64,000 bases of DNA from Bacteroidia bacterium (GCA_037968415.1 JBBKVM010000078.1:4358-68357), one strand, 5' to 3'; positions 7,745 through 64,000 are shown, numbered from the stretch's first letter. A program made the numbers and translations. The notes: generated by a model from the letters alone, not told the origin.

Positions 7745-7797
7745 TCGTTTATCGTATTCAATCATTTATTTTTTTAGTTGTGGGAATGACAAATTCA

Positions 7798-8562: not shown

Positions 8563-8565
8563 CCA

Positions 8566-13851: not shown

Positions 13852-14865
13852 CTAAAAGGTCGGACAACTTATTGTCCTAAATCTTTTGCGTTTTGGTTTG
13901 CATTCGAACTGAAGTCCGAATGATAATTCATGAGATCCACCAGGTGCATTTCCTAGCTTAGAAATAGTTAGGTCGTAACTATATCCAAATTTGAAAACTC
14001 CTTGTTGCAGTCCTACTAACGCAATAATGGACTCACCTGCAATGAAACTTGAAGTTTCGCCCAATGTATTTTCTTTTCTGCCCAGGTTGCTTCTAAACCA
14101 CAATCCGCCCACCAAAGGGGTTTTACTTACATATACTCCCAGATTCAAGTAATTGAAGCCGGCCTGTTGCTGGTATACCACGTTGGGTGAAAGATTGGAC
14201 TCGGAATATCTTGAATTTTCAAGTGGAATGATGGCTCCCAAATGTGCGGTATACTTGCGAGGAAGGGGACTTGATCCCTGAATGATGAATGCCTCATCGG
14301 GTTCGGTTATATGATGTACTGCAATTCCGCCATAAATGTTGGAACTATAACCCAAAAGGCCTGCAGATAGGTCCACGTATGATCTTGTTTCGTTAGGTCG
14401 TGATTCCTGGGTTTGGTACACAAATCCATACCTTGGATCTATCATATCACCAAAAGTGAGTTTGTCCCAATCTAGCTTTTTCTGAAAATAGGTTGCCTGA
14501 AAGCCTGCTTTTATCGAAAATTCACGACTTACGTTGAGCAGATAACTATACATTCCGCTTACTGAATTGGTGCTGATGGTTCCTTCTCCTGCTTTGTCGC
14601 TAAGTACAATAATTCCTAATCCTCCACCGATAGCATCCACATGTTGGTCGTAAGAAGCCGCGTAGGTCACAAAGGCACCCGGCAGCGCTGGCCATTGGTT
14701 GCGGTAATTCATCACAAGTCGGGGACACTTTACGCTGCCTGCAAATGCAGGGTTCATATATATAGGAGCCGCATAAAACTGCGTAAAATGCGGATCTTGA
14801 GCATTTAAAGTCATGCTCGAAATCAACAATATTAAAGAAAGAAACCTAGTCAGCCTAAATATCAT
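13852..14865 (-). CDS. Type IX secretion system membrane protein, PorP/SprF family
   Basis: AQDPHFTQFYAAPIYMNPAFAG, NYRNQWP, FKFGYSYD and GGSHELS motifs; signal peptide. Confidence 0.9.
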   Translation of the reverse strand: MIFRLTRFLSLILLISSMTLNAQDPHFTQFYAAPIYMNPAFAGSVKCPRLVMNYRNQWPALPGAFVTYAASYDQHVDAIGGGLGIIVLSDKAGEGTISTNSVSGMYSYLLNVSREFSIKAGFQATYFQKKLDWDKLTFGDMIDPRYGFVYQTQESRPNETRSYVDLSAGLLGYSSNIYGGIAVHHITEPDEAFIIQGSSPLPRKYTAHLGAIIPLENSRYSESNLSPNVVYQQQAGFNYLNLGVYVSKTPLVGGLWFRSNLGRKENTLGETSSFIAGESIIALVGLQQGVFKFGYSYDLTISKLGNAPGGSHELSFGLQFECKPKRKRFRTISCPTF

Positions 14866-14983
14866 GAATCCGCGGTAATTGAGGGTTTCTATTACGCAAA
14901 TAGAAAATGAATGTTACAAATTTATTATTTGAGCAATATCAACAGACTCCATACGTTTTTTAGCCTTGTATATTGTCTGATAG

Positions 14984-15014
14984 CAAAGGTAATTTTAATG
15001 CAATCATTCACAAA
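14984..15014 (-). promoter_or_regulatory. Complete Bacteroidota sigma-A promoter (TTTG-N19-TACCTTTG) for the PorP-family gene
   Basis: Plus-strand CAAAGGTA at 14984-14991 and CAAA at 15011-15014, 19-nt spacer; matches the consensus exactly. Confidence 0.7.
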
Positions 15015-15043
15015 TCTAAATAATTAAGCACATTTTAAATAAC

Positions 15044-15051
15044 TATCTTTG
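15044..15051 (+). promoter_or_regulatory. -7 element (TATCTTTG) for porU
   Basis: Exact TAnnTTTG, 45 nt upstream of the porU ATG; back-to-back with the divergent promoter. Confidence 0.6.
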
Positions 15052-15096
15052 TATGAGCTGATTTTACATTGTTTTTAACTCCCTAATTTTAAAATC

Positions 15097-18993: not shown

Positions 18994-19014
18994 CCTACTT
19001 CACACTTAATATTT

Positions 19015-19022
19015 TATATTTG
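19015..19022 (+). promoter_or_regulatory. -7 element (TATATTTG) for porV-ispF
   Basis: Exact TAnnTTTG overlapping the track's TTG start, which argues for a downstream ATG. Confidence 0.55.
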
Positions 19023-19043
19023 CAGCCTTGTATGAATAGAACT

Positions 19044-20273
19044 ATGAAAAGAATTACAGCTACTGCCGGAGCCATTGCTGTTGCATTATTGGCATTACCG
19101 GAAAGATCATCAGCACAGAAAACGCAGGATACTTTTGATGAATTGCAATTGAACACTATCACCACTGCAGTTCCGTTTTTACTTATTGCACCTGACTCGC
19201 GTGCTGGCGGAATGGGTGATGCAGGCGTTGCCTCTTCTCCCGATGCAAATTCGATCCACTGGAATCCAGCCAAGTTGGCGTTTGCTGAAAAGGACATGAG
19301 TTTCTCATTGTCTTACACGCCTTGGTTGCGTGCATTGGTGCCGGACATCAATCTTGCATATGTTTCTGGTTATAAAAAGCTCGATAAAGATCAGGCATTA
19401 GGAGTTTCGCTGCTCTATTTTTCATTGGGTGATATCACATTCACCGATGTAACAGGAAACACCATCGGCCAATACCGACCCAACGAATTTGCGATAGACG
19501 TAGCTTATGCTCGTAAACTTGGCGAAGAACTTTCGGGTGGTATGGCGTTGCGCTATATTTATTCAAACCTCACTGGAGGAATTGATGTGTTGGGAGCCTC
19601 TTCAAAGCCGGGCACTTCAGTGGCGGCTGATCTTTCAGTGTTTTACACCAAAGAAATGGATATCTCCAAAAAAGATGCGCAACTTTCTTTCGGTGCTAAC
19701 ATATCCAACATCGGAGCCAAAATGTCATACACCGAAACAGGCAACAAAGATTTTATTCCTGTGAGCATGCGATTGGGAAGCAGCCTGCTTTTGAATCTTG
19801 ATGAATACAATCAAATAGCCGTAAATCTTGATTTCAATAAGTTATTGGTGCCCACACCTCCAGTGTATGAAACTGATTCAAACGGAACACCCATCACCGA
19901 TGCCAATGGCGACAAAGTGATATTGGCAGGCAAGGATCCTGATGTGCCGCTGGTTTCAGGAATGTTGCAATCTTTTGGCGATGCACCAGGTGGATTTAAA
20001 GAAGAGATGCGCGAAGTGAATATTAGCTTTGGCGTAGAATACTGGTACGATCAGCAGTTTGCGTTTCGTGCCGGATATTTCTACGAGCATCCAACTAAAG
20101 GCAACCGCAAATTTTTCACGCTGGGCGCGGGGTTAAAATACAATGTTTTTGGACTCGACTTCGCTTATCTAATCCCTACCGAACAACGCAATCCTTTGGA
20201 GAATACGTTGCGATTTACCCTCAAGTTTGATCTTGCGGCCAACGCCAATGCCAAAGATAAAATTGCTGAATGA
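19044..20273 (+). CDS. porV: Type IX secretion system outer membrane protein PorV
   Basis: ITTAVPFLLIAPDSRAGGMGDAGVA, WNPAKLAF, SYTPWLR, GVEYWY, GYFYEH and NPLENTLRFTL motifs; start ATG 19044 (or 19032). Confidence 0.93.
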   Translation: MKRITATAGAIAVALLALPERSSAQKTQDTFDELQLNTITTAVPFLLIAPDSRAGGMGDAGVASSPDANSIHWNPAKLAFAEKDMSFSLSYTPWLRALVPDINLAYVSGYKKLDKDQALGVSLLYFSLGDITFTDVTGNTIGQYRPNEFAIDVAYARKLGEELSGGMALRYIYSNLTGGIDVLGASSKPGTSVAADLSVFYTKEMDISKKDAQLSFGANISNIGAKMSYTETGNKDFIPVSMRLGSSLLLNLDEYNQIAVNLDFNKLLVPTPPVYETDSNGTPITDANGDKVILAGKDPDVPLVSGMLQSFGDAPGGFKEEMREVNISFGVEYWYDQQFAFRAGYFYEHPTKGNRKFFTLGAGLKYNVFGLDFAYLIPTEQRNPLENTLRFTLKFDLAANANAKDKIAE

Positions 20274-51066: not shown

Positions 51067-53739
51067 ATGAAGCTAAAATTATACTCCCTCCTCATTGCGA
51101 TAATAGTGGCAAACAGCACGCTATTACATGCGCAAGTAATCAACTGTGCTGCGCCCGCAGGCTTAACTTCAACAGTAACAACCGCCAGTACTGTTACACT
51201 ACATTGGACTGCTACTACTGGAGTGAGTTTGTTCAATTTACAATACCGCGCGGTTACTCCTGCCAACACTGCCTGGACACAGCAGTTTTCGCAAACAACA
51301 ACTGTCACCGTTTCAAATTTGTTGTGTGGCCAGGTGTACGAGTGGCAAGTGCAATCAATTTGCGGAACGTCCACCAATAACGTTAGCAACTGGGTGGCCG
51401 GAACTGTATTTACTTTATTGCCATGCAACACCACTTGCCCCGCGCCTTCCGCATTAACAGTGGCCAACATCTCATCCACCGGTGCCACGTTTGGATGGAC
51501 AGCAGTTGTCGGTGTATCTGGCTATCATTTGCAATACAAACCTGTCAATTCAACAATTAGCTGGACCAGCGCCACATCTGGCACCAACTCGTTGACACTT
51601 CAAAACCTAACCTGCGGAACCACTTACGAGTGGCAAGTGCAAACTGTATGCAATGCCGGAGGATCAGTAAACACATTTTCACCATTTGTAGCGGGCCCGG
51701 TATTTACTACTATAGCTTGTAGTACTCCTTGCCCTGCACCTACCGCACTCAACGTGTCAAACATAGCACAAACCAGCGCAACGCTATCATGGACATCGTC
51801 ATCTAGTAACATAGCTTTTGTAGTTCAGTACAAGCCAGTGAACACGCCCAACACACCTTGGACAACAATTACAGGAACTTCAGCTCCCGTTCAACTTTCC
51901 GGATTGTTGTGTGGCACTACTTACGAGTGGCAAGTCACTGCTCATTGCCCTAACAGCAATGGCACAGTTGTGACAAGTACCACTGTGGCCGGCCCTTCCT
52001 TTACTACACTGGCTTGCGCCAGTACTTGCCCTTCGCCTTCCGTGTTGACAGTATCCGGGATCACTGCAAATGGTGCCATACTTAGCTGGACTGCGGCTTT
52101 AGGTGTGTCCGGTTATCATCTGCAATATAAGCCCACCAACTCAACAACCGGCTGGTCCAGCGTCACATCGGGTACTAATTCGTTGACGCTTCAAAATCTA
52201 ACATGTGGAACTACTTACGAATGGCAAGTTCAATCAGTTTGTAATGCCGCGGGCACATTAAATTCTTTTTCGCCATTTGTATCAGGGCTTGTATTTACTA
52301 CTGCGGCTTGCAGTACACCCTGCCCTGCACCCACCTCGCTCAGCGTTACAAATATTACACAAACCAGTGCCACACTTTCATGGGCCTCCTCATCAAATAA
52401 TATTGCCTTTGTCGTTCAGTACAAACCGGTAAACACACCCAACACACCCTGGGCAACCATTACCGGCACCGCTTCTCCTGTTCAGCTTTCCGGTTTGTTG
52501 TGCGGTACCACTTACGAATGGCAAGTCATTGCCCATTGCCCAAACAGCAATGGTAGTGTGGTGACAAGCACCACCATAGCCGGCTTTGCTTTTACCACAA
52601 TGGCCTGCGCCAATACTTGCCCACCGCCTAACGCACTGACTGTTTCTGGCATCACTGCTAATGGTGCTATACTTAGCTGGAATGCAGCGACTGGTGTCTC
52701 TGGTTATCATATCCAATACAAGCCTACGAATTCAACCATCGGCTGGACCAGTGTTACATCAGGCACCAACTCGTTGACGCTTCAAAACTTAACCTGCGGA
52801 ACCACTTACGAATGGCAACTGCAATCAGTTTGTAACGCCACGGGCACATTAAATTCTTTTTCGCCATTTGTTGCCGGTCCGGTGTTTACCACGCTGCCAT
52901 GCAACACGCCTTGCCCCATACCCGGAGGAACTCACACAACTCAAATTACCTCATCATCAGCAGTGGCCGGCTGGTCAGCTGTGCAAAGCGCAGTGATGTA
53001 TCAGGTAAGATACCGAGCGTTGTCAAGTGTTTTTCCTTCCAACTGGCTTGTGATATCCACTCAGAATTTGAATCAGTCGTTGTATAATCTTGCATGTGGC
53101 ACAGCATATGAGTGGCAAGTACAAACCCTTTGCGGAAACGGAAGTGCTACCAACGCCAACCCAAGCGGATACTCACCTAGTACAGTATTTACCACATTAC
53201 CTTGTACAACACTTTGTGCAGCACCTACTGGACTTACTTCATCTGTATTATCCAGCGGCAGTGCCACTCTCAGCTGGAATTCAACCGGGGCGTTCAATTA
53301 TCATGTGCGATATCGTTCAGTAAATAGCAACACATGGTTGTTTGCCGGAAGTGCTACAAATTCAGTTACAATCAATGGGTTGTTGGCAAGCACAGGTTAT
53401 GTGTGGCAGGTACAAAGTGCTTGTGGCAATTCAAATGGCACCGTTGTCTTGAGCGGATGGTCAGTGTTGTCGACACTCATTACGCCTGTGCTTAGTCCTC
53501 CGTTTCCAAATCCAGCTGCTACCGAACTCACCATTCCTGTTCAGTTGATAGAAGAGGGTGATGTGCGTGTGGAGTTGCGTAACAGCATGGGTATGCTTGC
53601 GCTTGAAGAAAACAGATATTTGGTAAATGGAGATATTTATGTGAAACTCAGCACCGGTCAACTGTCGGGTGGGTTGTATTTTGTATACGTGCATACCGCA
53701 GCCGGCATACAGGTTCACAAAGTTTACATTAGAAACTAA
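51067..53739 (+). CDS. Secreted protein with 8 Cys-rich fibronectin type III domains and a T9SS type A CTD
   Basis: Signal peptide ending LHA-Q; eight ~98-aa units CP.P..L......A...W......Y..QY...W......L..L.CGT.YEWQVQ..C; CTD PFPNPA...GLYFVYV...HKVYI. Confidence 0.85.
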   Translation: MKLKLYSLLIAIIVANSTLLHAQVINCAAPAGLTSTVTTASTVTLHWTATTGVSLFNLQYRAVTPANTAWTQQFSQTTTVTVSNLLCGQVYEWQVQSICGTSTNNVSNWVAGTVFTLLPCNTTCPAPSALTVANISSTGATFGWTAVVGVSGYHLQYKPVNSTISWTSATSGTNSLTLQNLTCGTTYEWQVQTVCNAGGSVNTFSPFVAGPVFTTIACSTPCPAPTALNVSNIAQTSATLSWTSSSSNIAFVVQYKPVNTPNTPWTTITGTSAPVQLSGLLCGTTYEWQVTAHCPNSNGTVVTSTTVAGPSFTTLACASTCPSPSVLTVSGITANGAILSWTAALGVSGYHLQYKPTNSTTGWSSVTSGTNSLTLQNLTCGTTYEWQVQSVCNAAGTLNSFSPFVSGLVFTTAACSTPCPAPTSLSVTNITQTSATLSWASSSNNIAFVVQYKPVNTPNTPWATITGTASPVQLSGLLCGTTYEWQVIAHCPNSNGSVVTSTTIAGFAFTTMACANTCPPPNALTVSGITANGAILSWNAATGVSGYHIQYKPTNSTIGWTSVTSGTNSLTLQNLTCGTTYEWQLQSVCNATGTLNSFSPFVAGPVFTTLPCNTPCPIPGGTHTTQITSSSAVAGWSAVQSAVMYQVRYRALSSVFPSNWLVISTQNLNQSLYNLACGTAYEWQVQTLCGNGSATNANPSGYSPSTVFTTLPCTTLCAAPTGLTSSVLSSGSATLSWNSTGAFNYHVRYRSVNSNTWLFAGSATNSVTINGLLASTGYVWQVQSACGNSNGTVVLSGWSVLSTLITPVLSPPFPNPAATELTIPVQLIEEGDVRVELRNSMGMLALEENRYLVNGDIYVKLSTGQLSGGLYFVYVHTAAGIQVHKVYIRN
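51436..52911 (+). repeat. Intragenic tandem array A-B-A-B-A (A 294 nt, B 297 nt; 591-nt period)
   Basis: A1 51436-51729, B1 51730-52026, A2 52027-52320, B2 52321-52617, A3 52618-52911; long shared nucleotide tracts such as AACTCGTTGACxCTTCAAAAC and ACTTACGAxTGGCAA. Confidence 0.9.
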
Positions 53740-53759
53740 TAAATGGAGATACTAAAGAA

Positions 53760-53786
53760 CGCGCTTTGCCTGCTAGGCAAAGCGCG
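53760..53786. terminator. Hairpin between convergent T9SS cargo genes
   Basis: CGCGCTTTGCCT-GCT-AGGCAAAGCGCG, a 12-bp stem. Confidence 0.7.
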
Positions 53787-53794
53787 CTCTTTAA

Positions 53795-55579
53795 TTATAA
53801 AACTAAAATCTTAACGGTGCGTGAAGTAAATCTGCTTTGCACCTGCAATCCATAAACACCAGGACTTAAAGTTTTATTCGGAGTCACTTTGAGTGGTGGA
53901 TCGCCCGATTTCCAATTGAAAAATTGTGTGTGCTCTGCTACACCAGCTAGGTTGATGATGGTGATAGAGTTGTTTTGCTCACTATTTAAACGTACCCAAA
54001 TTTCATTGCTGGTAGGATTAGGAAAAACATCAAAACTCAAGACATCGGTCGTTTGATTTTGATTGCTAGTAATTAATGGGACACAGCTAGCAATTGCGCT
54101 TCCGCCAGTATACCTAATCTTGGCGGGGATTGTGCCGCTGTTCAGTGTGTTGGGAATTCCAATTGTGGGCCACGTACCCGCATTCACCCAATACATGGGT
54201 GCAGCAGAATAGTAGTAGCCCAAGTCATTGAGTGTGCCAGTTCCGGTAGGTTGAATCGTTCCTTTAATGTTATTGCCATGTGCGAAATGCCCGCTTCCGT
54301 TCAGTATATAATTCCCAAGCGTAAACCCGGTATTGGTTACCTCATTGCCTACAAAATTTTGCGCATCAGATTGTACACTTCCCGTGCTCATAATGATACC
54401 ATATAGTTCAGCGCGGTTTCTCAAAAAAGTATTGTAAGGTCCTGAAGGCCCCCATGCCTGATCAATGTGTATGTTCTGCACGATGTTTCCTTCAAACAAA
54501 TTCGCGTATGCAAAATGACCATGTAAAGAAATGTCACCTCCTGCATTGGTTGGGAATTCGGTGCGCAATGGCTCTATGGAATAATTGTATCCAAACACAT
54601 TTCCGTTGGCACCTTCTTTTACTATCATCGCGTGTCGCAATTTTCTGAACACATTATTTTCTATCAGGCAATTGCTCGTTCGCTGGCGCAACATTACTCC
54701 ATATCCGCGAGTGCTGGTGCCATCATATGCAAATGATTCATGAATGTAACATTCGGACATTGTGATATGATTGCTACTATTAATACTTATGTGACTGCCA
54801 TTACTGCGATAACTGTAAACGCCTTGAAGATTGGAGTTGTAGGCGTAATCAAGATTTATATTATATGCATCTCCCGAAGTGACAGTGTCAAGACGTTGAA
54901 TAACTATGCACTTCAGACCAGTAGCCACAATCGGATTGAGAACCCTTATTTGTGGCATCAATAAGCTATCGTAAGTAATTCTAAGAGCCTCGTTAAGGAA
55001 AAGAGTGTCTCCGATGATGGAAGTGATTTTGGTTAGTTGACCAACGCTATAGCTCGCCCACGATGCAGGTTGTGTATCCCATGTTCCATTTTGTTGTCTC
55101 AATTCCACATGGCTGCCCACGGTAAAAGCTCCCACATTGTTCACCACTAGGGCCGAAGATCCTTTAATGTAGCCACTTACTATTGAGGAGAAAATGCCCG
55201 TTTGCGCTCTGGATATATTTATACAATTGCTCACCGCTCCTGACAGGTCGAAAAGTAGCCTTGTTGAATCGGCAGAATAGCCGCTGATAATTACACTGTC
55301 GCTTATCGTCAGATTACCCTTCAATAAATACTGACCCGGAGGGAAATATAGCTCAGCCTTAGAAATGTTTGCAATGTTAAGGGCTGCTTGTACGGCTGCG
55401 TGGTCATTGGTTATTCCATCGCCAACCGCACCATGGTTGAGTACATTCACTTGCAATGCGGGTACATATTTGTTGCCATCGTAACCTGCACCGGACCAAT
55501 CGGAGTATTGTGATGATGGTACTACTTGCGCATTGACCTGCAGCACCAGTAAACAACATATAGCCAATATGAGTTTCAT
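53795..55579 (-). CDS. Secreted right-handed beta-helix (pectate lyase 3 / GH28-like) protein with T9SS CTD
   Basis: Signal peptide MKLILAICCLLVLQVNA-Q (start 55579); VNVLNHGAVGDGITNDHAAVQAAL; Asn-ladder repeats (LIENNVF, NVFGYN, NLFEGN); CTD VFPNPT...GVYGLQV. Confidence 0.8.
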   Translation of the reverse strand: MKLILAICCLLVLQVNAQVVPSSQYSDWSGAGYDGNKYVPALQVNVLNHGAVGDGITNDHAAVQAALNIANISKAELYFPPGQYLLKGNLTISDSVIISGYSADSTRLLFDLSGAVSNCINISRAQTGIFSSIVSGYIKGSSALVVNNVGAFTVGSHVELRQQNGTWDTQPASWASYSVGQLTKITSIIGDTLFLNEALRITYDSLLMPQIRVLNPIVATGLKCIVIQRLDTVTSGDAYNINLDYAYNSNLQGVYSYRSNGSHISINSSNHITMSECYIHESFAYDGTSTRGYGVMLRQRTSNCLIENNVFRKLRHAMIVKEGANGNVFGYNYSIEPLRTEFPTNAGGDISLHGHFAYANLFEGNIVQNIHIDQAWGPSGPYNTFLRNRAELYGIIMSTGSVQSDAQNFVGNEVTNTGFTLGNYILNGSGHFAHGNNIKGTIQPTGTGTLNDLGYYYSAAPMYWVNAGTWPTIGIPNTLNSGTIPAKIRYTGGSAIASCVPLITSNQNQTTDVLSFDVFPNPTSNEIWVRLNSEQNNSITIINLAGVAEHTQFFNWKSGDPPLKVTPNKTLSPGVYGLQVQSRFTSRTVKILVL

Positions 55580-55749
55580 CGTATAAATGTAGTCATAACA
55601 TTGAGGTGTTTCCTCGATTAAATAAACCTTAAGTGAGTTGGTTCGTCTGTGAAGGGTTGCAAGGCTCAATTGTTCTCAAAATTTGCTTAATTGCAGGTCG
55701 GTTTAAAAACCGTAATAGAATTTACCTTCCACATCAAATTCTTTAGCAG

Positions 55750-56148
55750 ATGAGAAAAAATATTTTGTTGGTGTTTATTATTATCGGTACAGCCTTTACA
55801 TCGTGCCAAAAAGAAGCAGGCGAGGGGGGTAATTCAACCATCACCGGGCGGATTTGGGTGCGTAATTATAATGCCAATTTTACACAGCTTAACGGTCAAT
55901 ATGCGGGGGCCGATGAAGATGTATACATCATATATGGTGACGATGTGACTTATGGCGACCGCCAAAAAGCATCTCCCGATGGCATTTTCGAGTTCAAATA
56001 CCTTCGCAAAGGCGACTACCGCATCTACATTTACTCTAAAGACAGCACCATGCAATCACCTTCCGGCAAGGTAACTTTTACAAGAGATGCAGCCATAAAG
56101 TCGAAGAAAGAGACGGTTGATTTGGGCACTATCACCATTATTAATTAA
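55750..56148 (+). CDS. Hypothetical lipoprotein, transthyretin/CnaB-like beta-sandwich
   Basis: Lipobox FTSC followed by QKE; TITGRI...DGIFEFKYLRKGDYRIY pattern; first gene of a coupled operon. Confidence 0.7.
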   Translation: MRKNILLVFIIIGTAFTSCQKEAGEGGNSTITGRIWVRNYNANFTQLNGQYAGADEDVYIIYGDDVTYGDRQKASPDGIFEFKYLRKGDYRIYIYSKDSTMQSPSGKVTFTRDAAIKSKKETVDLGTITIIN

Positions 56149-56153
56149 GCAAA

Positions 56154-56714
56154 ATGAGACAGGGATTAGTGTTGTTATTATTTTGTGCATTTGCTTGCAA
56201 CATAGGATGGGCCCAAAGCAAAAAGCAAATTAAAAAGTATGGCATTAAATCAGTGAATGTCACTGTCGCTGATTCGGATGGAGGAAAGACAAGAGTCGAA
56301 TCAGCTATCAGTTTTGACAAACGTGGAAATGTGCTGCAAGAAAAAGAATATGGTAAATCGGGAGAGTTGAAGAAAACAACCACTGTGCGTTACGACAAAC
56401 ATAACAATCCACTTGAAGAGACCATAACCGGAAAGAATGGTGAGGTCATTAAACGAATGTTGGCCACTTATGATTTTGAAGGAAAGAAGTTGGAAGAAGT
56501 AGAAACCAACGCAGAGGGCACGGTTTTGTTAAAGACTGTGTATGAATACAACAAGTTTGGCGAGAAAATATTGGAAGAAGTGACCGGTAGTGATGGACTC
56601 ATGAAAGAAAAAACAGTATACACTTATGACAAGTTTGGTTTGCGCATACAGAAAGATATATTTGACGGAACAGGCAAATTTGTGCTACAGAAAAAGTACA
56701 GTTACGAGTTATAG
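56154..56714 (+). CDS. Hypothetical exported protein with five YD-like beta-hairpin repeats
   Basis: Signal peptide ending GWA-Q; repeats SFDKRGN, RYDKHNN, TYDFEGK, EYNKFGE, TYDKFGL at about 24-26-aa spacing. Confidence 0.7.
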   Translation: MRQGLVLLLFCAFACNIGWAQSKKQIKKYGIKSVNVTVADSDGGKTRVESAISFDKRGNVLQEKEYGKSGELKKTTTVRYDKHNNPLEETITGKNGEVIKRMLATYDFEGKKLEEVETNAEGTVLLKTVYEYNKFGEKILEEVTGSDGLMKEKTVYTYDKFGLRIQKDIFDGTGKFVLQKKYSYEL

Positions 56715-57494
56715 ATGGAGGACCTAGGTGCGATTGTAAATAAGTTTGGGCCTGTGCGGCTTGAAGAAATGGATGAGGTGGCGCTGCAAGACAGAATCGA
56801 CACCAAATTTATTTTTCCTGAATATTTGGTGCCCACAATTCTTCAGGAATTGACTGAGCATTATTGGGTTTTGGAAGTGGCCGGCAGTCGGGTTAATGAT
56901 TACAAATCGTTGTACTTTGATACCCCTTCATTTGGTTTGTATCACGAGCATCATCGCGGTAAGCTCAATCGTTTTAAGGTGCGATACCGGGAGTATTCTC
57001 AATCGGGCACCCACTATTTTGAAGTAAAATTGAAAAACAATAAAGGGCGAACCATAAAGTATCGCGTGCCAGACGCGGGCATGAATGCATTTATATCCGA
57101 ACCCGCCAGCAAATTGCTCGACCGCACCACAGAAATGGTAGCAGGAGAACTGGAGCCCAAGCTGATGGTTAGTTACACACGCTTGACATTGGTAAGCAAA
57201 AAGAAAACGGAACGAGTCACCATCGATATGAATCTGCGATTTCACAAAGATCCTGAGGTGCGCGATTTTGGTAAGTTGGTGATAGCGGAACTGAAACAAA
57301 GCGAGGCTCGTAATTCAAAGTTCAGCGAAGTGATGCGAAAGTTTGGCATACGCAGCTTGGCCATTAGCAAATACTGCTATGGTGTAATAAGTTTGTACAA
57401 CAACATCAAGTACAATAATTTTAAACCAAGATTAATATCAATTAATAAGATTAGAAATGGAATTGTTGCAAATACTCACCGAGCCGGCCACTGA
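56715..57494 (+). CDS. VTC-domain (polyphosphate polymerase-like, TTM fold) protein
   Basis: RIDTKF, YKSLYFDTP, RFKVRYREY, YFEVKLK, VSYTRLTL, ERVTIDMNL, VIAELK and ISKYC; no signal peptide or TM helix. Confidence 0.85.
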   Translation: MEDLGAIVNKFGPVRLEEMDEVALQDRIDTKFIFPEYLVPTILQELTEHYWVLEVAGSRVNDYKSLYFDTPSFGLYHEHHRGKLNRFKVRYREYSQSGTHYFEVKLKNNKGRTIKYRVPDAGMNAFISEPASKLLDRTTEMVAGELEPKLMVSYTRLTLVSKKKTERVTIDMNLRFHKDPEVRDFGKLVIAELKQSEARNSKFSEVMRKFGIRSLAISKYCYGVISLYNNIKYNNFKPRLISINKIRNGIVANTHRAGH

Positions 57495-58077
57495 AGCCGC
57501 GGTTAACTTATACGATAGATTGACGTCCGACTTTTTTATCAGGTTGGCCATAGATATAGCAGCCTTGTTGGTGCTCATTCGACTAATCTATTTTCCGGTA
57601 TATAAAAACCGCGAGTTCTTTTTTACCTATTTCATTTTCAACATTGTTATCTTCTTTGTGACATACCTATTGAATAAAGTAGAGATCAGCATGGGTGCAG
57701 CCTTTGGATTGTTTGCTGTGTTCTCCATGCTTCGCTATCGAACTGAAGGTATTTCGATGAAGGATATGACTTATCTTTTTCTTGCCATTGCGATGGGTTT
57801 GATAACTGCGGTGGCCAAAGGTGGATGGGATCAGCTCATACTTCTGAATGCGATAATTCTTGCATTTACTTTTTTGCTGGAAAGCAATCTGTTCATGAAA
57901 AGAGAGTTTTCGAAACTGATTCAATACGAAAATATTGAGATGATAAAGCCTGAGTTTCGCGAAAGATTAGTGATCGACCTCGAAACGCGCACCGGCATAA
58001 AAATTAACAGGATCACCATCAACAAAGTTGATTTTCTGCGCGACACCGCCATGATCCGTATTTACTACTATGAGTAA
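57457..58077 (+). CDS. DUF4956 family inner membrane protein
   Basis: LIRLIYF, GAAFGLFAVFSMLRYRT, MKDMTYLF and IQYENIEMIKPE...DLETRTG; 4-5 TM helices plus a small C-terminal domain; overlaps the VTC gene by 38 nt. Confidence 0.85.
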   Translation: MELLQILTEPATEAAVNLYDRLTSDFFIRLAIDIAALLVLIRLIYFPVYKNREFFFTYFIFNIVIFFVTYLLNKVEISMGAAFGLFAVFSMLRYRTEGISMKDMTYLFLAIAMGLITAVAKGGWDQLILLNAIILAFTFLLESNLFMKREFSKLIQYENIEMIKPEFRERLVIDLETRTGIKINRITINKVDFLRDTAMIRIYYYE

Positions 58078-58744
58078 AATAATTTCCGGCATGTTGCTTT
58101 TATGTGTGATGGCTGCAGGCCAGCAGGCCATGGCGCAGCAACGCGATGCAGGATTGTGGGTGGATGCAGAATTAAAATACTTAATAACGGAACGCGTAGG
58201 TGTGCAATTGAGTCAGTCGTTTCGAATAAATGAGAATTTTTCCGAGTTGGGGAGTACATATACTCAAATAGGTGTTCAACGAGTGATTACTCCGGCCATA
58301 AAAGGAGGCGTGTATTATCGATTTTCTCAGAAGAAGCAACTGGATGAAAGCCATAGTTTGCGGCATCTTTATATCGTAAATGCGATTTGCAAATTTGAGA
58401 TCGGGCGGTACAAATTCTCAGTAAGAGAGCAATACCAATCACAGTACACTGATGTTGGAAGGAGCGAACATTCTTTTTTAGCGGAAAATCATTTGCGGAG
58501 TAAACTGTCTATAGATTATGATTTGAGAAAGCGCTATGCTCCATTTATGGCTGCTGAAATATATTATCTCATTCAGAATGAAGGAACGAGTTTCATTGAT
58601 AATGTGCGTCTACAAGCAGGTATTGAATATGAACTAAGTAAGAGAAGCGGATTGAGCCTTGGGTATCTCTTCAACAAAGAGGTGAATGTAAATAATCCCA
58701 CCACTGATTTTGTAATCAGGACGGGATATCAGCATCAATTTTGA
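58070..58744 (+). CDS. DUF2490 family outer membrane beta-barrel
   Basis: Signal peptide ending AMA-Q; DAGLW, alternating beta strands, ENHLRSKL, PFMAAEIYY, RLQAGIEY; terminal Phe; 8-nt ATGAGTAA overlap with DUF4956. Confidence 0.75.
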   Translation: MSKIISGMLLLCVMAAGQQAMAQQRDAGLWVDAELKYLITERVGVQLSQSFRINENFSELGSTYTQIGVQRVITPAIKGGVYYRFSQKKQLDESHSLRHLYIVNAICKFEIGRYKFSVREQYQSQYTDVGRSEHSFLAENHLRSKLSIDYDLRKRYAPFMAAEIYYLIQNEGTSFIDNVRLQAGIEYELSKRSGLSLGYLFNKEVNVNNPTTDFVIRTGYQHQF

Positions 58745-58747
58745 CTG

Positions 58748-59677
58748 TCACAGTTTAAAAAATTTTCCGGAAGAAGTCTTGGTGCCTTTTGTGTACACTT
58801 GAAAGAAGTAAAGCCCGTTGGGCCATTCGGAGCAATTCAATTCAAATTCTTGATTCTCAAACCGCGAGGGGGCTAGCACTTGTTGCCCTTGGTTGTTGTA
58901 CACGGTGATGAACGATGTCTCGTAACGCAAACCGGTTTTTTTAATGCGCAACAGCCCGGTGGTGGGATTGGGGTAGGCAATGTGAGAGCCGGTTTCCAGC
59001 TCATTGATATCACTGCCCAAGTCCGCGTACGAGATTAGGAGGTTGTCGATCATCCAGCCATCCAGATTAGTTTGAATGCTATCGCTTTTAAAGTGAAACC
59101 TGAGGATAAGTGTGTCGGGAAGAAAACGCAATGGGAATGCCCATACCCATTGGATAGAGGTATTAACCCAGCCGTTTGAAGTACCTGAAAATGCAGGTGT
59201 GCCATTGTTCAAAATATCGGTTTTTGTATATAAGTTTTGTGAAGCAAAAACGATTGGCGAGGTCACGGTGTCATCGTGAATTACATTGTGCCACGAAGCC
59301 CCCTGATTGTATGAAACTTCAATATAGCCTCCATCATTACCAATATCAGTTTGATATTTGTGCCGGAAACTCACGATCATTCCCAGATAATAATACATGT
59401 TGTTGGGCAATACCAAATCGAACCACGAATGGTTGGAAGTGGGGTAGGGATTGAGGGTATCTGTCATGAGGGCATTGGGAGGGGAATAGGCCGTGCCAAA
59501 AAATGGTTTTGTGGTAGTGCCTACTTTCCACACATTGGTTGCGCTGGTGTCAGGTTTGAATATTTGGCAGGTAGTTTCAAAGTTGCAACTGTCCAGATCA
59601 AAAATTCCTAAAAAGGGCTGAATCTGGGCATTTACGGACAATGAGTAGAGGATGATTAGTAAGGACAAGTAGCGCAT
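58748..59677 (-). CDS. Secreted hypothetical protein (jelly-roll/MAM-like) with T9SS type A CTD
   Basis: Signal peptide ending VNA-Q; NVWKVG, SFRHKYQTD..DGGYIEVS, FHFKSD...DGWMIDNL; CTD AYPNPT...NGLYFFQV. Confidence 0.75.
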   Translation of the reverse strand: MRYLSLLIILYSLSVNAQIQPFLGIFDLDSCNFETTCQIFKPDTSATNVWKVGTTTKPFFGTAYSPPNALMTDTLNPYPTSNHSWFDLVLPNNMYYYLGMIVSFRHKYQTDIGNDGGYIEVSYNQGASWHNVIHDDTVTSPIVFASQNLYTKTDILNNGTPAFSGTSNGWVNTSIQWVWAFPLRFLPDTLILRFHFKSDSIQTNLDGWMIDNLLISYADLGSDINELETGSHIAYPNPTTGLLRIKKTGLRYETSFITVYNNQGQQVLAPSRFENQEFELNCSEWPNGLYFFQVYTKGTKTSSGKFFKL

Positions 59678-59703
59678 TGCGTTGAAGTTTGGATAGAGGA
59701 AAG

Positions 59704-59728
59704 TTAAAGAAAGTTTGGCTTTCTTTAA
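59704..59728. promoter_or_regulatory. Inverted repeat TTAAAGAAAG-N5-CTTTCTTTAA in the divergent promoter gap
   Basis: Perfect 10-bp arms between the 309-aa T9SS gene and cotH. Confidence 0.4.
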
Positions 59729-59799
59729 AAAAAATGTATGATCTTTAAACCATTCAAAAACCCTCTCGTCAATACCCCAACCTAAACCTTATTTGAACC

Positions 59800-62142
59800 A
59801 TGAAAGGAAAATTTACTTCCCTATTGCTTGTCTTAGCGGCTTTGAGTTTCTGTAGCCATCAAACGGTGGCACAGAGCTTACCATCCGAGATGCATTTTAC
59901 AGCTGATGGCCGCATGTTGATGCTTGGAGATAATGCCAACACAGGCTTGTACGATCAATCAACAATCAGAAGCGTTTATCTCACTTTTTCTCAGCCCAAC
60001 TACTGGACTTTGTTGCAGAATAACTATTCTTCGCAAACTGATTTGATTGCCACCATGGTAGTGGATGGTGTTACGTATGACAGTGTTGGCGTGCGGTTCA
60101 AAGGACAGACTTCTTATTCCATGAGTGGCACTTCGCAGAAAAAGTCATTTAATATTTCTCTTGATTATTTGAAGTCATCACAACGATTGATGGGATACCG
60201 CACTTTGAATTTGAATAATTCATTTCAGGACCCATCTTTTATGCGAGAAGTATTTTATCAAAGTCAGATTAAAAAACATATACCGGCTGCTAAATCGGCT
60301 TATGTGAAGTTGTATATCAATGGAGCCAACTGGGGTGTATATCCTAATGTACAGCAACTGAATGGCGATTTTTTGAAGGAGTGGTTCTTTAGCAATAATG
60401 GCACCAATTGGCGTGCCGACAAGCCACCGGGAAGCCCGGGCGGACCTGGCGGTGGCTGGGGTGATGGCACTGCTGCACTCAATTATCTGGGTGCAGATTC
60501 CAGTTTGTATAAACCGTACTACACTTTAAAGAGCACAGACAAACTTACACCTTGGAGCGACCTGGTGAATACTGCAAATGTGTTGAACACAACCCCGCTC
60601 GCCAACCTGCCTACCTCACTGCCTGCAGTGCTGGACATCGACAGGACATTGTGGTTTTTGGCTAGCGAGAATTTATTTTCTGACGATGACGGATATATCT
60701 ATAAAGGGAAAATGGATTACTATGCATACTGGGAAGCCGAAACCGGTCGCATGACACCGTTAGAGTATGATGGTAACAGCGTGATGGAAACGAATTTTGC
60801 CACCTGGAGCCCATTTTACAACGAAACTAAAATCAATTACCCATTAATGAATAGATTGTTTGCTGTGCCTGAGTATCGCCAGCGCTACCTCGCGCATTTG
60901 CGCACCATCATGAATGATTATTTCAACGCTACTAGTGCGGGAGCAAAGTTGGATGCATACAAAGCGCAGATAGACACCATGGTTCAGAACGATCCTAAAA
61001 AAGCAACTACCTACAGTGCATTTGTGAGTGAAGTGCAGGTGTTGAAGAACTTTATGACAACCAGACGCAACACTTACAATGCCAACACAGAATACAACCA
61101 GCCCACTCCCGCCATTGCTGCCACCGCTTTTTATTTTGGAGGTATTGCCTGGCAGCAGCCCAACCCTGGTGTGCCTGTGAATGTGCGCACTACTGTCACT
61201 TCTGCTAACGGCATTTCAAATGTATACCTATATTATTCGAATGCACTGGTTGGTAATTTTACACGCATTGCCATGTATGATGATGGGCTGCATGACGATG
61301 GTGCAACTGGGGATGGTGTGTATGGGGAAGCCATACCTGCATTTGCTGCAGGAACCTACGTAAGGTTTTATATTGAAGCAGCTGGAAACAACACTGCCAA
61401 AACCGTTTCCTATGACCCTCCGGGCGCAGAGCATAATGTGTACACATATTTAATTACGCCTGCTTTGGCGTCCGTTTCTGACGTGGTAATCAATGAGCTG
61501 ATGGCTTCCAACACAACAGCTGTCCCTGATAATTTTGGGGAGTTTGATGACTGGATTGAGTTGTATAATAAGTCAGGCAATTCAGTCGACCTCACCAATT
61601 TTCACCTCACGGACAATCCACTGAATCTTACCAAATGGAAAATCCCAGCCGGAACAGTGATGCCGCCCAATACATATCTGATTGTGTGGGCTGACGAAGA
61701 TAGCAGCCAGGGCCCGTTTCATGCCAATTTCAAGTTGTCTTCATTGGGTGAGCAAGTATGGCTCATCAACACAGCTGGGCAAATAGCTGACTCTATTTCC
61801 TGGGGCCAGCAAATTACTGATATGGCCTTTGCGCGCGTGCCCAATGGTACCGGCAACTTTTTGATTCAGCAACATACATATGCTGCCAACAATAATTTGA
61901 GCAGCATTGCTCCCAGCGTAAACAAGGCCTTTGCGCTTTACCCAAACCCTACCAATCAGGCATTCAACTTAAACTTTGCCGTGCAGCCCATAGGAAGCAT
62001 TCAGGTATACAATGCACAAGGTAGACTGATGCACATGCAAACTGCCATGTTGAACCAAATTATATCTGTGGAAGGATGGCCTGCCGGAATATATCTCGTA
62101 AGGGCAGGAGAAGTAACTCGCAAAGTTGTAGTTAAAGAATAA
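59800..62142 (+). CDS. CotH-family atypical kinase with choice-of-anchor-X-like insert, lamin-tail domain and T9SS CTD
   Basis: Signal peptide; VGVRFKGQTS, KKSFNI, LNLNNSFQDPSFMRE, YVKLYING...GVY, LDIDRTL; MYDDGLHDDGATGDGVYG; VVINELMASN...DWIELYN; CTD LYPNPT...GIYLVR. Confidence 0.85.
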   Translation: MKGKFTSLLLVLAALSFCSHQTVAQSLPSEMHFTADGRMLMLGDNANTGLYDQSTIRSVYLTFSQPNYWTLLQNNYSSQTDLIATMVVDGVTYDSVGVRFKGQTSYSMSGTSQKKSFNISLDYLKSSQRLMGYRTLNLNNSFQDPSFMREVFYQSQIKKHIPAAKSAYVKLYINGANWGVYPNVQQLNGDFLKEWFFSNNGTNWRADKPPGSPGGPGGGWGDGTAALNYLGADSSLYKPYYTLKSTDKLTPWSDLVNTANVLNTTPLANLPTSLPAVLDIDRTLWFLASENLFSDDDGYIYKGKMDYYAYWEAETGRMTPLEYDGNSVMETNFATWSPFYNETKINYPLMNRLFAVPEYRQRYLAHLRTIMNDYFNATSAGAKLDAYKAQIDTMVQNDPKKATTYSAFVSEVQVLKNFMTTRRNTYNANTEYNQPTPAIAATAFYFGGIAWQQPNPGVPVNVRTTVTSANGISNVYLYYSNALVGNFTRIAMYDDGLHDDGATGDGVYGEAIPAFAAGTYVRFYIEAAGNNTAKTVSYDPPGAEHNVYTYLITPALASVSDVVINELMASNTTAVPDNFGEFDDWIELYNKSGNSVDLTNFHLTDNPLNLTKWKIPAGTVMPPNTYLIVWADEDSSQGPFHANFKLSSLGEQVWLINTAGQIADSISWGQQITDMAFARVPNGTGNFLIQQHTYAANNNLSSIAPSVNKAFALYPNPTNQAFNLNFAVQPIGSIQVYNAQGRLMHMQTAMLNQIISVEGWPAGIYLVRAGEVTRKVVVKE

Positions 62143-62166: not shown

Positions 62167-62198
62167 AATGCCGGACTAAAGTCCGGCATTTGATTTTT
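62167..62198 (+). terminator. Intrinsic terminator after cotH
   Basis: AATGCCGGAC-TAAA-GTCCGGCATT followed by TGATTTTTT. Confidence 0.7.
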
Positions 62199-62231: not shown

Positions 62232-62897
62232 TTGAGCAAGTTGTCACACATATTGAGCGCAGGTAGGCGAATATTTTCACCTAAGGTTTTTTGTATTGGG
62301 CAAAATAAAACCGGTACAACCAGTATGGCTTTGGCCATGCAACAGCTTGGGCATTATGTAGCACCTCAGCGTCCTGCTGAACAGTTGCTTGATGATTGGC
62401 ATGAAGGTAAATTTACATCCACCATAAACTTTGTGAAGTACAATGGTAGCGCATTTCAAGACGTACCATTTAGTTTGCCGGGGACTTTTAAAATTATGGA
62501 TCAGCATTTCCCGAATGCCAAGTTTATCCTGACGGTGCGAAATGATCCTGACGAATGGTATCGGTCGCTAACAAAATTTCATGCGCAAATGTTTGGTGAT
62601 GGGGAAGTGCCCAATTCGCAACAATTGAAGGCCGCTCAATACATTCGCAAGGGCTATGCCTATGACTTTATGAAATGGGTTTATAAAACTTCAGATGAAG
62701 ACATCTATAACAAAGAGTTGCTTACCATACATTACACCCAATTCAACCGCGAAGTTGTCAATTACTTTGAAAACAAAACGGGCAAACTAATGGTAATAAA
62801 TTTGAAAGCACCGGATGCTGCACAAAAGCTATCAGAATTTTTAGCAACCGGACATACCATTCAAGAAATTCCGTGGGAAAATAAAACCAACGGATAG
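62232..62897 (+). CDS. Sulfotransferase-like P-loop protein (Sulfotransfer_4-type)
   Basis: KVFCIGQNKTGTTS PAPS-binding loop, FQDVP, FPNAKFILTVRNDPDEWYRS; TTG start uncertain. Confidence 0.78.
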   Translation: MSKLSHILSAGRRIFSPKVFCIGQNKTGTTSMALAMQQLGHYVAPQRPAEQLLDDWHEGKFTSTINFVKYNGSAFQDVPFSLPGTFKIMDQHFPNAKFILTVRNDPDEWYRSLTKFHAQMFGDGEVPNSQQLKAAQYIRKGYAYDFMKWVYKTSDEDIYNKELLTIHYTQFNREVVNYFENKTGKLMVINLKAPDAAQKLSEFLATGHTIQEIPWENKTNG

Positions 62898-62899
62898 CA

Positions 62900-64000
62900 T
62901 CACTCTTCCTTTACCCGTTTTGCTTCGTCAATTTCCTCCTCAGTGTCCAGCTGATTTTTTCCTGTTTCGCAGTAATCTACCAACATCTGCAGATGCCTTG
63001 CCCAATGGTAATTGCACGTGGCAAAAAACTCTGATTGGCCAGACCAGCCTGTATGTCGGAAATCGAGTTTGGTGTAATCACCATGGTGAGCAATATTGAA
63101 AATGATATGTGTGCCCACCCATTCTTCGTCTCCTTTTATGCATTCCCATTCCACTCGCTCATCCTCTACCAGGTCTGTTATTTTCATTCTATTGTTCACG
63201 TATTCACCTAATCGGAATTCGTTTACAAATCCCACTTCCGGCATTGCAATGCATTGGGCGATCCACCATTTTGACAACCCCGTTTGGAGTGTAACTGCAT
63301 CATATACGGTGTGTTTATCTGCCTTGATGAGGACCTGGTGATAGATTCGGCCCGCCATGCCCAGCGCACCACCAGCTTTCAGCCTTTTTTCTTCTTCTTT
63401 TTCAAAAAACCATGAGGCTGCAAATCCGGTGAAAGTGCCCACCAGCGCCACGCCTGCTGTCATTAAAAAACCAGCTATGATTCTGCCTTCGGTAGTTACC
63501 GGAACTTTGTCACCATATCCCACAGTAGTAATGGTAACAAGCGCCCACCACAAAGCGTCTTCCGCTGTGTGTATGTTGCCGTTGGCGGTGCCTTCCACTT
63601 GAAGTATGGCAATAGATCCAAACAACACCATCAATACGGCTATTACGCTCACGGTATTAAAGGCACCCTGCGCCCGGTTATTGTAAACGTGATTGACAAG
63701 CACACGGATGGAACGAAACACACGGAGTATTCTTAGAAGTCTTATAAGCCTAAGCGTACGGCCTGCGCGCAATTCGGTAAAGTAGGGGATGCTCGAAACA
63801 AGGTCTATCCAACCCCACTTCATAAACTTTAGCTTGTTCTCGGCCAAATAAAATCGCACGCTGAATTCGAACAAAAAGAAAATGCAAATTAAATTATCTA
63901 TTAAATGGATGAGATGCGAAACCTCATAAGGTAGCACCATTACGGTATCTACAACGATAGCCACCAGCACATAGATGGAGAGTATAATCTCCATCATCGA
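62900..64000 (-). CDS. Voltage-gated-type K+ channel fused to a C-terminal SRPBCC domain (frame open at window edge)
   Basis: S4 RAGRTLRLIRLLRILRVFR; filter WWALVTITTVGYGD; after Met 63358 an SRPBCC-like domain (IYHQVLIKA...LSKWW...VEWEC...W...L..Y.ETGK). The codon upstream of ATG 63997 is TCG, so the true start may lie outside the window. Confidence 0.82.
   Translation of the reverse strand, partial: SMMEIILSIYVLVAIVVDTVMVLPYEVSHLIHLIDNLICIFFLFEFSVRFYLAENKLKFMKWGWIDLVSSIPYFTELRAGRTLRLIRLLRILRVFRSIRVLVNHVYNNRAQGAFNTVSVIAVLMVLFGSIAILQVEGTANGNIHTAEDALWWALVTITTVGYGDKVPVTTEGRIIAGFLMTAGVALVGTFTGFAASWFFEKEEEKRLKAGGALGMAGRIYHQVLIKADKHTVYDAVTLQTGLSKWWIAQCIAMPEVGFVNEFRLGEYVNNRMKITDLVEDERVEWECIKGDEEWVGTHIIFNIAHHGDYTKLDFRHTGWSGQSEFFATCNYHWARHLQMLVDYCETGKNQLDTEEEIDEAKRVKEE

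Follow-up and report, generated by a model that had tools for sequence, protein, structure and literature searches.

This study describes a five-gene cassette, and a gene for a secreted CotH kinase downstream of it, in a 64,000-nt stretch of DNA from a Bacteroidia bacterium (GCA_037968415.1, JBBKVM010000078.1:4358-68357), which was analysed as one strand and is called the window throughout. The five open reading frames (ORFs) of the cassette were re-derived from the sequence and all lie on the + strand. They encode, in this order, a lipoprotein, an exported YD/RHS-like repeat protein, a putative triphosphate tunnel metalloenzyme (TTM) of the VTC family, a predicted inner-membrane protein of the DUF4956 family and a predicted outer-membrane barrel of the DUF2490 family (Table 1). 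ORF calling gave gaps of +5, 0, -38 and -8 nt between them. The initial annotation had proposed an envelope-spanning system for polyphosphate (polyP) or phosphorylation at this place, and its description of five tightly packed genes, with the ORFs, coordinates and gaps, was reproduced. Its domain calls were borne out by Pfam and NCBIfam matches for VTC, DUF4956, DUF2490, RHS/YD, CotH, LTD and the sorting C-terminal domain (CTD) of the type IX secretion system (T9SS), and its assignment of the proteins to compartments agreed with the signal peptides, the lipobox, the lack of transmembrane segments in VTC and the barrel model with its fold matches.

The same annotation had placed a CotH gene with a T9SS CTD about 1 kb downstream on the same strand. 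Gene, domain and distance were correct, and a convergent gene between DUF2490 and CotH had been overlooked. This gene encodes a 309-aa T9SS-cargo protein (Pfam Por_Secre_tail, 5.1e-12), of which the CTD was the sole matching part in related loci, and it is not a conserved member of the module. The CotH gene has a 122-nt gap of its own upstream and a terminator at its end; it therefore lies outside the cassette operon as a separate transcription unit.

Table 1. Positions of the cassette genes, the CotH unit and the T9SS machinery genes, counted from the first nucleotide of the window
Feature	Position	Strand	Description
Lipoprotein	55750-56148	+	132 aa; first gene of the cassette; lipobox
YD/RHS-like exported repeat protein	56154-56714	+	186 aa; signal peptide and repeats
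VTC/TTM enzyme (putative)	56715-57494	+	259 aa; Pfam VTC
DUF4956 inner-membrane protein (predicted)	57457-58077	+	206 aa; Pfam DUF4956
DUF2490 outer-membrane beta-barrel (predicted)	58070-58744	+	224 aa; Pfam DUF2490, AlphaFold2 model
T9SS-cargo gene	58748-59677	-	309 aa; Por_Secre_tail; convergent with the cassette
Secreted CotH kinase	59800-62142	+	780 aa; CotH, choice-of-anchor-X, LTD and T9SS CTD
Bidirectional hairpin terminator, end of CotH unit	62167-62190	both	10-bp stem with 6 GC pairs; T-runs on both strands
PorP/SprF	13852-14865	-	T9SS machinery
PorU-like C25 peptidase	15097-18993		T9SS machinery
PorV	19020-20273		T9SS machinery

Conservation of the cassette was followed in 80 loci, which were fetched through alignment of VTC homologues (44-51% identical) from species-representative genomes and which all belong to metagenome-assembled genomes of uncultured Bacteroidota. 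Six-frame ORFs of these loci were searched with the proteins of the window. The order lipoprotein-YD-VTC-DUF4956-DUF2490, on one strand, was kept nearly everywhere. All five genes occurred in 62 of the loci, and many of the remaining ones lie on contigs that end a few kb from the cassette. Since 62 of 80 related loci carry the same five genes in the same order, the arrangement lies far outside what chance would produce. The cassette represents a conserved operon with an invariant core, in which the VTC-like TTM enzyme is translationally coupled to DUF4956. The form found in Bacteroidota extends this core by the lipoprotein, the YD-like repeat protein and a small outer-membrane barrel with a predicted basic lining.

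A variant without the YD-like gene was found in marine metagenomes (L120, L121, L128, L135, L140, L142, L147, and L153), and in four of these loci (L121, L128, L135, and L142) two CotH-LTD-CTD paralogues lie in tandem immediately upstream. Genes for a LytS-type histidine kinase and a LytTR response regulator occurred within about 6 kb of the cassette in 17-23 loci, mostly upstream on the same strand (e.g., L027:5793-6851, L037:13136-13852, and about 20 other loci), and the pair may regulate the cassette.

The VTC protein matched the Pfam family VTC (PF09359) with an E-value of 3.5e-29 and 102.5 bits (cut-off 23) over model positions 2-235 of 235, and no second Pfam family was found at E<=0.01. 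Its sequence contains no signal peptide and no transmembrane segment, and neither the Pfam scan nor the sequence revealed an SPX domain. By these features it is a cytoplasmic protein and a putative polyphosphate polymerase. Basic and acidic residues that were invariant across an alignment of 29 VTC homologues match the alternating tunnel pattern of a TTM enzyme. The invariant positions are R27, D29, K31, R86, K88, R90, R92, Y94, E103, K105, K107, R112, K115, R117, Y154, R156, E166, R167, D171, E192, K194, S218, K219, and Y220, most of which are retained across Deinococcota, Alphaproteobacteria and Actinomycetota. The tunnel residues of yeast Vtc4 for polyP synthesis, from the work of Hothorn and colleagues in 2009, are reportedly K200, R264, R266, Y359, E426, S457, and K458. 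The weak profile alignment to Vtc4 (E 0.07) places R27 and K31 on ‘VRQTTKYW’ and R90 and R92 on ‘HRLRWY’, positions which we take to hold the catalytic K200, R264 and R266. Y154-x-R156, E192-x-K194 and S218-K219 are likewise invariant, and fit the remaining Vtc4 motifs by pattern only. A search of the PDB with the single VTC sequence returned radixin matches only, which were rejected as spurious.

The DUF4956 protein matched PF16316 over its entire model (8.8e-53, positions 1-169 of 169), and the VTC and DUF4956 genes share 38 nt. Within the module, DUF4956 is conserved most strongly, with 66-75% identity compared to about 50% for VTC, of which it is the obligate partner. The features kept most widely across phyla are an FGLF motif and R95. 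The AlphaFold2 (AF2) model has an overall confidence (pLDDT) of 62, with values of about 55 for five helices (24-142) and about 80 for a beta-alpha-beta-beta domain (150-205). The protein is thus predicted to consist of five transmembrane helices followed by a C-terminal beta-alpha-beta-beta domain. The positive-inside rule suggests that the N-terminus lies outside and the C-terminal domain in the cytoplasm; with that topology, the conserved loop LRYRTEG…K would face the cytoplasm. Homology to the yeast VTC channel or to any solved protein was considered and rejected. A PDB profile search returned noise only, and a Pfam search at E<=10 returned DUF4956 and one negligible match (E 8.2). A Foldseek search with the low-confidence model gave no fold match at E<=0.001 and weak ACT-like matches in the C-terminal 55 residues.

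The remaining cassette proteins carry signals for export. The lipobox of the 132-aa lipoprotein (...GTAFTSC) was read from its sequence. The protein matched no Pfam family above the cut-off, with weak matches to fn3_3 and Y_Y_Y only, and neither it nor the 186-aa YD-like protein matched a PDB sequence. A homologue of the lipoprotein occurred in 71 of the 80 related loci, 5' of the YD-like gene where both are present and sometimes as a tandem duplicate. It is probably a beta-sandwich partner of the DUF2490 barrel. The YD-like protein, found in 76 of the 80 loci, combines a signal peptide with some 5.5 repeats, each of about 26 aa; its match to RHS_repeat was weak (Pfam, 9.9e-05, 23.1 bits with a cut-off of 22), as was that to TIGR01643 (0.0048). 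It is an accessory periplasmic component.

The DUF2490 protein matched PF10677 (6.7e-21) and has a signal peptide and a C-terminus (...YQHQF) with the terminal Phe typical of outer-membrane proteins. Its AF2 model (pLDDT 80, pTM 0.73) shows a signal helix and 11 resolved strands, consistent with an outer-membrane barrel of about 12 strands. The matches listed by Foldseek were all membrane beta-barrels, mostly from the bacterial outer membrane, namely beta-domains of intimin and autotransporters, OmpG, PcoB, Occ porins, AlgE, and mitochondrial VDAC/TOM. Bacterial matches reached TM-scores of 0.4-0.5, and the top TM-scores went to barrels of the bacterial outer membrane with about 12-14 strands. 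On the lumen face, as inferred from strand alternation and not from coordinates, lie about 16 K/R positions conserved in the family and about 7 acidic ones, and one DUF2490 homologue also matched Porin_4. In two related loci (L062:5508-6607 and L074:6601-7706), the lipoprotein gene overlaps that of DUF2490, and the two lie 2-3 kb from YD-VTC-DUF4956. This separate pairing suggests that the two proteins form an outer-membrane sub-complex of their own.

The core pair also occurs outside Bacteroidota. Plasmid and chromid records were searched by tblastn with DUF4956 and their annotations looked up, giving seven records. Intact VTC and DUF4956 genes were adjacent in six of the seven records, those from Deinococcota, Alphaproteobacteria and Actinomycetota, in either gene order. 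The order was CotH-VTC-DUF4956 in Deinococcus and DUF4956-VTC in Nonomuraea and Streptomyces. Aminobacter and Nitratireductor carry DUF4956-VTC followed by a phytase-like esterase, with or without a gene for the inorganic phosphate transporter PiT between them. The operons on these plasmids (L083, L084, and L086) are preceded by a pair of extracytoplasmic function sigma and anti-sigma factors and an S8 peptidase, and contain no CotH. On a megaplasmid of Pseudoalteromonas sp. CuT4-3 (L081:7225-9603), a 164-aa LTD protein, a VTC remnant, an intact DUF4956 and a porin O/P were found in succession. The remnant comprises the last ~65 codons only, in another frame, so this locus is partly decayed. 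The porin (Porin_O_P, 2.4e-47) lies directly 3' of DUF4956 and, in this gammaproteobacterium, fills the slot held by DUF2490 in Bacteroidota. Owing to these contexts of PiT, phytase-like esterase and porin O/P, the accessory genes of VTC-DUF4956 are phosphate-related.

The strongest accessory link of the cassette was to CotH. CotH genes were counted with an iterated hidden Markov model (HMM) of the kinase domain only, as an HMM of full-length CotH was inflated by proteins with the LTD or the CTD alone. A CotH kinase domain occurred in 44 of the 80 cassette loci. It was encoded directly upstream, on the same strand and within 400 nt, in 32 of the 65 loci for which 3 kb or more of upstream sequence was available, and within the flanks of 24 of the 42 loci with 7 kb or more on each side. 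CotH-like proteins made up 27,056 of 1.84e9 cluster representatives (E<=0.001), and this share of the protein library corresponds to a chance expectation of about 0.0003 CotH per 20 genes, which is not a formal probability as the loci are phylogenetically related. A 100-fold enrichment of CotH in these genomes would still give only about 3%.

The linkage persisted across gene arrangements, with CotH upstream, as tandem paralogues upstream, or downstream on the opposite strand (L035). Further orders were DUF4956-DUF2490-CotH-VTC (L104), VTC-DUF4956-CotH (L109), and CotH-VTC-DUF4956 in Deinococcus taeanensis, besides the order seen in the window. The linked CotHs of Bacteroidota share an architecture of CotH, LTD and T9SS CTD; the linked CotH of Deinococcus has a signal peptide, and a streptococcal homologue is predicted to be secreted (bioRxiv 10.1101/2024.04.20.589940). 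Secreted CotH-LTD kinases of the T9SS are the usual genomic partner of the Bacteroidota cassette, and the link is solid at the level of the family. The initial annotation had named VTC, DUF4956 and CotH as recurrent neighbours, a statement confirmed by the upstream and flank counts, by Deinococcus and by the pel loci discussed below.

The CotH of the window matched the Pfam families CotH (PF08757, 1.1e-46), LTD (1.8e-18) and the T9SS CTD (1.5e-09), the NCBIfam family choice-of-anchor-X and, in its T9SS tail, TIGR04183 (3.3e-11). A signal peptide was read from the sequence. With its sorting domain, and with the machinery genes at 13852-20273 in the same window, it has the marks of T9SS cargo. 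It also matched the structure of Bacillus cereus CotH (5jd9) at 2.7e-07. D297 aligns with the Asp of ‘LDSY’ and D324 with the Asp of ‘WDLN’ in canonical CotHs, and both are kept. The catalytic aspartates of B. subtilis CotH are D228 and D251 (PMC7821199), and D297 and D324 are taken here as their equivalents only from motif position and B. cereus numbering. In the HMMER pairwise register, a Glu appeared to replace the metal-binding Asp; this was rejected, as the register of the family alignment is P-x-x-[WY]-D-x-N and D324 is conserved. In the catalytic loop, D306 takes the place of Asn, a change that is kept across a large subfamily. From the kept D297 and D324, the enzyme looks active.

Its closest relatives (E down to 1e-296, 57% identity) carry the motif ‘D[SG]Y..KG.MDYY.Y … EYDGN’. 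This ‘MDYY’/‘EYDGN’ subfamily, with Asp for the catalytic-loop Asn, is conserved over many representatives of clusters at 50% identity (P0241-P0390). The CotHs linked to operons in the 80 cassette loci carry ‘LDSY…QNYYLY … WDLN’ and belong to subfamilies other than that of the window, with which they share the CotH-LTD-CTD architecture.

Taken together, these proteins probably move a phosphate polymer across the cell envelope. In yeast, the TTM domain of Vtc4 makes polyP from ATP, and Vtc1/2/3/4 form a membrane channel. As its most likely step, the proposed mechanism has the TTM enzyme polymerising phosphate from a nucleoside triphosphate (NTP) and handing the chain to an oligomer of DUF4956, which would carry it across the inner membrane. 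This would be analogous in function to the yeast VTC complex, with a non-homologous membrane part. The lipoprotein-DUF2490 pair and the YD-like protein would then bring the polymer, or phosphate from it, onto the outer membrane or through it. The least certain step is the last. There is no ATP outside the cell, and secreted CotH-LTD enzymes may bind or use the exported phosphoanhydride polymer and phosphorylate surface proteins or glycans. In the window, the downstream CotH-LTD-CTD paralogue may stand in for the upstream CotH that is absent. What we observe is the linkage of the genes, the identity of their domains, the conserved residues, the signals for the compartments and the barrel fold; polymerase activity, translocation with its direction, and any polyP use by CotH are what we infer. 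The export mechanism as a whole is the favoured explanation, with a rough probability of 0.45. The boldest form of it, in which a VTC-like machine extrudes polyP through both membranes and secreted CotHs use it in place of ATP as donor or link it to proteins or glycans of the surface, is unlikely. It would amount to a dedicated line that supplies phosphorylation outside the cytoplasm with energy and phosphate, in Bacteroidota, Deinococcota, Bacillota and Actinomycetota.

A number of points weigh against export, and the rival explanations draw on them. The profile search of the VTC family matched yeast Vtc4 structures weakly (3g3q, E 0.07). Neither in sequence nor in fold did DUF4956 show detectable similarity to the membrane domain of yeast VTC or to a solved structure, and the model of its transmembrane part is of low confidence; the idea in the initial annotation that a polymer passes through DUF4956 as a channel thus gained nothing from the poor AF2 model or the search for VTC-channel and PDB matches. 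The literature yielded no published enzyme assay of a bacterial VTC protein, no biochemical data for any bacterial VTC, DUF4956 or DUF2490 protein, and no functional study of these or of a T9SS CotH. We know of no enzyme with a protein kinase fold that uses polyP as donor. About 40% of the full-flank cassettes have no CotH within 7-10 kb, and most CotH genes do not adjoin a cassette. Transport could also be directed inward, because the proteobacterial neighbours are classic uptake components. The earlier claim of a phosphate-related crossing of the envelope is supported, for either direction, by the PiT, phytase-like esterase and porin O/P contexts. Uptake and storage is the main rival. Phosphate, pyrophosphate or polyP would enter through the basic-lined barrel or, in Proteobacteria, OprO/P, and would be moved across the inner membrane by DUF4956, alone or together with PiT. 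VTC would store it as polyP or process the incoming polymer, and secreted phytase-like esterases, possibly also CotH-LTD proteins, would act on phosphorylated substrates outside. OprP and OprO serve as porins for uptake, PiT imports inorganic phosphate, and the alphaproteobacterial operons with PiT and phytase-like esterases, the Porin_O_P gene 3' of DUF4956 in Pseudoalteromonas and the inferred basic lumen of DUF2490 all suit such a scheme. However, a kinase frees no phosphate, which leaves CotH without a role; DUF4956 is unlike any known phosphate transporter, and Vtc4-type enzymes polymerise away from the cytosol with ATP. Uptake thus appears rather improbable. According to another explanation, polyP stays cytoplasmic, DUF4956 acts as an anchor or regulator whose ACT-like domain senses a metabolite, and the exported proteins and CotH are only co-regulated and serve another purpose, such as remodelling of the surface or matrix. 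The authors of a preprint on Streptococcus intermedius propose that polyP may stay in the cytoplasm (bioRxiv 10.1101/2024.04.20.589940), and evidence of a pore is absent from the DUF4956 results, where the C-terminal domain, with its weak ACT-like matches, is the sole well-modelled part. Retention in the cytoplasm nevertheless leaves unexplained why a barrel, a lipoprotein and a periplasmic protein are packed into the same Bacteroidota operon, why a phosphate-selective porin holds the equivalent position in a gammaproteobacterium, and why the part with five transmembrane helices is the most conserved sequence of the module; it is judged unlikely.

A further explanation concerns CotH only and is compatible with any of the others. 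It holds that the CotH of the window is a bystander, placed next to the cassette by a local pile-up of T9SS-cargo genes, and that the true partner CotH, if there is one, is encoded elsewhere. Two of the points against the export mechanism belong here. The window CotH is transcribed separately, with its own terminator, behind an unrelated convergent gene and amid a cluster of T9SS cargo, with four such genes within 11 kb. In a scan of metagenomes for cassette linkage seeded with CotH, moreover, VTC or DUF4956 occurred in the flanks of none of the 15 closest full-length homologues of the window CotH, which are solitary genes for which no conserved neighbours were found. The operon-linked CotHs of the 80 loci are, in addition, all of other subfamilies. 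The claim of the initial annotation that this particular CotH is part of the module gained no support from these results. On the other side, about half of the cassettes adjoin a CotH-LTD-CTD gene of the same architecture, and a CotH at about 1 kb by chance is unlikely in view of the rarity of the family. VTC or DUF4956 was also found in the flanks of 10 of 44 more distant CotHs and of two of three shorter CotHs of the same subfamily (L104 and L109), which lie inside VTC-DUF4956 operons. Because the canonical upstream CotH is absent at the window locus, it is plausible that a paralogue has taken over its role. A bystander is accordingly a real possibility, with the odds somewhat against it, and the export mechanism can be held with or without this CotH gene.

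Compared to known systems, the export module shares with the eukaryotic VTC complex the PF09359 catalytic domain (3.5e-29), the conserved basic and acidic residues of a putative tunnel, of which R27, K31, R90 and R92 are placed on Vtc4 by the weak alignment, and the obligatory pairing with a membrane protein. In contrast to that complex, the VTC protein of the window is soluble and stands alone, without SPX and without VTC-type transmembrane helices. Its partner DUF4956 has no detectable homology to the VTC membrane domain, position 29 is acidic (R-x-D/E-x-K, compared to R-x-T-x-K in Vtc4), and the bacterial setting adds outer-membrane components. The catalytic protein belongs to the VTC domain family, and the system as a whole stands outside the eukaryotic VTC complex. 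PPK1 and PPK2, soluble or peripheral enzymes of an unrelated fold, produce their polyP in the cytoplasm and work without dedicated envelope partners; what they share with the module is the proposed product, polyP from NTP.

The closest described set is that of Gram-positive bacteria, in which cotH, polyphosphate polymerase and DUF4956 genes adjoin pel operons in streptococci, clostridia and bifidobacteria (Whitfield et al. 2020; bioRxiv 10.1101/768473; PMC7112168). The genes SIR_1594-1592 of S. intermedius represent this cotH/VTC-like/DUF4956 set (bioRxiv 10.1101/2024.04.20.589940), and NELoc-2 of Clostridium perfringens carries the cotH-VTC-DUF4956 triad (PMC11677781). Both sets combine DUF4956 with a CotH-like kinase that is secreted and a VTC-like enzyme in the cytoplasm; in the Gram-positive set, all three are described by annotation only. 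That set includes DUF4832 and pelDEA(DA)FG, whereas the annotated ORFs of the window contain no pel gene and the cassette and flanking genes scanned with Pfam gave no DUF4832 match. In Bacteroidota, the lipoprotein, YD-like protein and DUF2490 come in addition, and CotH carries the LTD and T9SS CTD. In the window, CotH is set apart by the convergent gene, its own terminator and its different subfamily, whereas in related loci the triad is contiguous. The triad is already in the literature, and the Bacteroidota system is an outer-membrane-extended form of it; a description of the six-component form, with the lipoprotein, YD-like protein, DUF2490 and T9SS-CotH-LTD added, was not found there.

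The spore-coat CotH of Bacillus (5jd9/5jda) has the same kinase domain and the motif Asps corresponding to D297 and D324. It acts on coat proteins in the mother cell, where ATP is available, whereas the CotH of the window is exported by the T9SS, carries LTD and anchor domains and has D306 in place of Asn. The phosphate/polyphosphate-selective porins OprP/OprO (PF07396) resemble DUF2490 in their position after DUF4956, as seen in Pseudoalteromonas, and in the K/R-rich lumen inferred for DUF2490. They show no sequence relationship to it, and DUF2490 is modelled as a small barrel of about 12 strands with a fold like that of autotransporters, intimin and OmpG.

The CotH-like family is very large and many of its members are secreted, and the VTC-DUF4956 pair is widespread, its homologues numbering in the thousands. 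Should the pair make polyP and export it, this would constitute a third bacterial route to polyP, directed to the envelope, beside PPK1 and PPK2, and it would explain reported surface and periplasmic polyP. It would also provide a donor for extracellular phosphorylation of matrix and surface polymers and bear on Pel biofilms and on NELoc-2 of C. perfringens. The Bacteroidota form offers candidates for the periplasmic and outer-membrane parts. A DUF4956-DUF2490 pair, BT3498-BT3499, is annotated in Bacteroides thetaiotaomicron (PMC10434189), and as this species is genetically tractable, the hypothesis is directly testable.

The rest of the window is mostly housekeeping, apart from the T9SS genes, a Wza/Wzc pair and the T9SS cargo beside the cassette. 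In 18-24 of the 80 related loci, homologues of PorP, PorU and PorV are encoded only 2-7 kb downstream from the cassette, a proximity that could stem from synteny within the clade or from a connection with the export of CotH by the T9SS. The cargo cluster (51067-55669, together with the convergent gene of Table 1) encodes three proteins, of 890 aa (with eight fn3 domains), 624 aa (pectate-lyase-like) and 309 aa. A Sulfotransfer_4 gene (62232-62897) directly follows CotH, and at 62900-63997 on the - strand lies a K+ channel of the voltage-gated type fused to a C-terminal AHSA1/START-like domain. These neighbours (sulfotransferase, K+ channel, pectate-lyase-like, fn3 and 309-aa proteins) were considered as module members and rejected, as they are not conserved by cassettes or by CotH homologues. 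A role in anti-phage defence was likewise rejected after PADLOC gave zero matches for all seven proteins. The polysaccharide export pair, Wza-like and Wzc-like, occupies 7780-10974, and a protein of the FGE-sulfatase family (12348-13793), which could be GldJ/GldK-like, adjoins PorP/PorU/PorV. In 24 related loci (e.g., L072:3056-4780), a T9SS-secreted arylsulfotransferase-like protein is encoded about 6 kb upstream of the cassette; such a protein would add a second type of extracellular group-transfer enzyme to the surroundings of the module.

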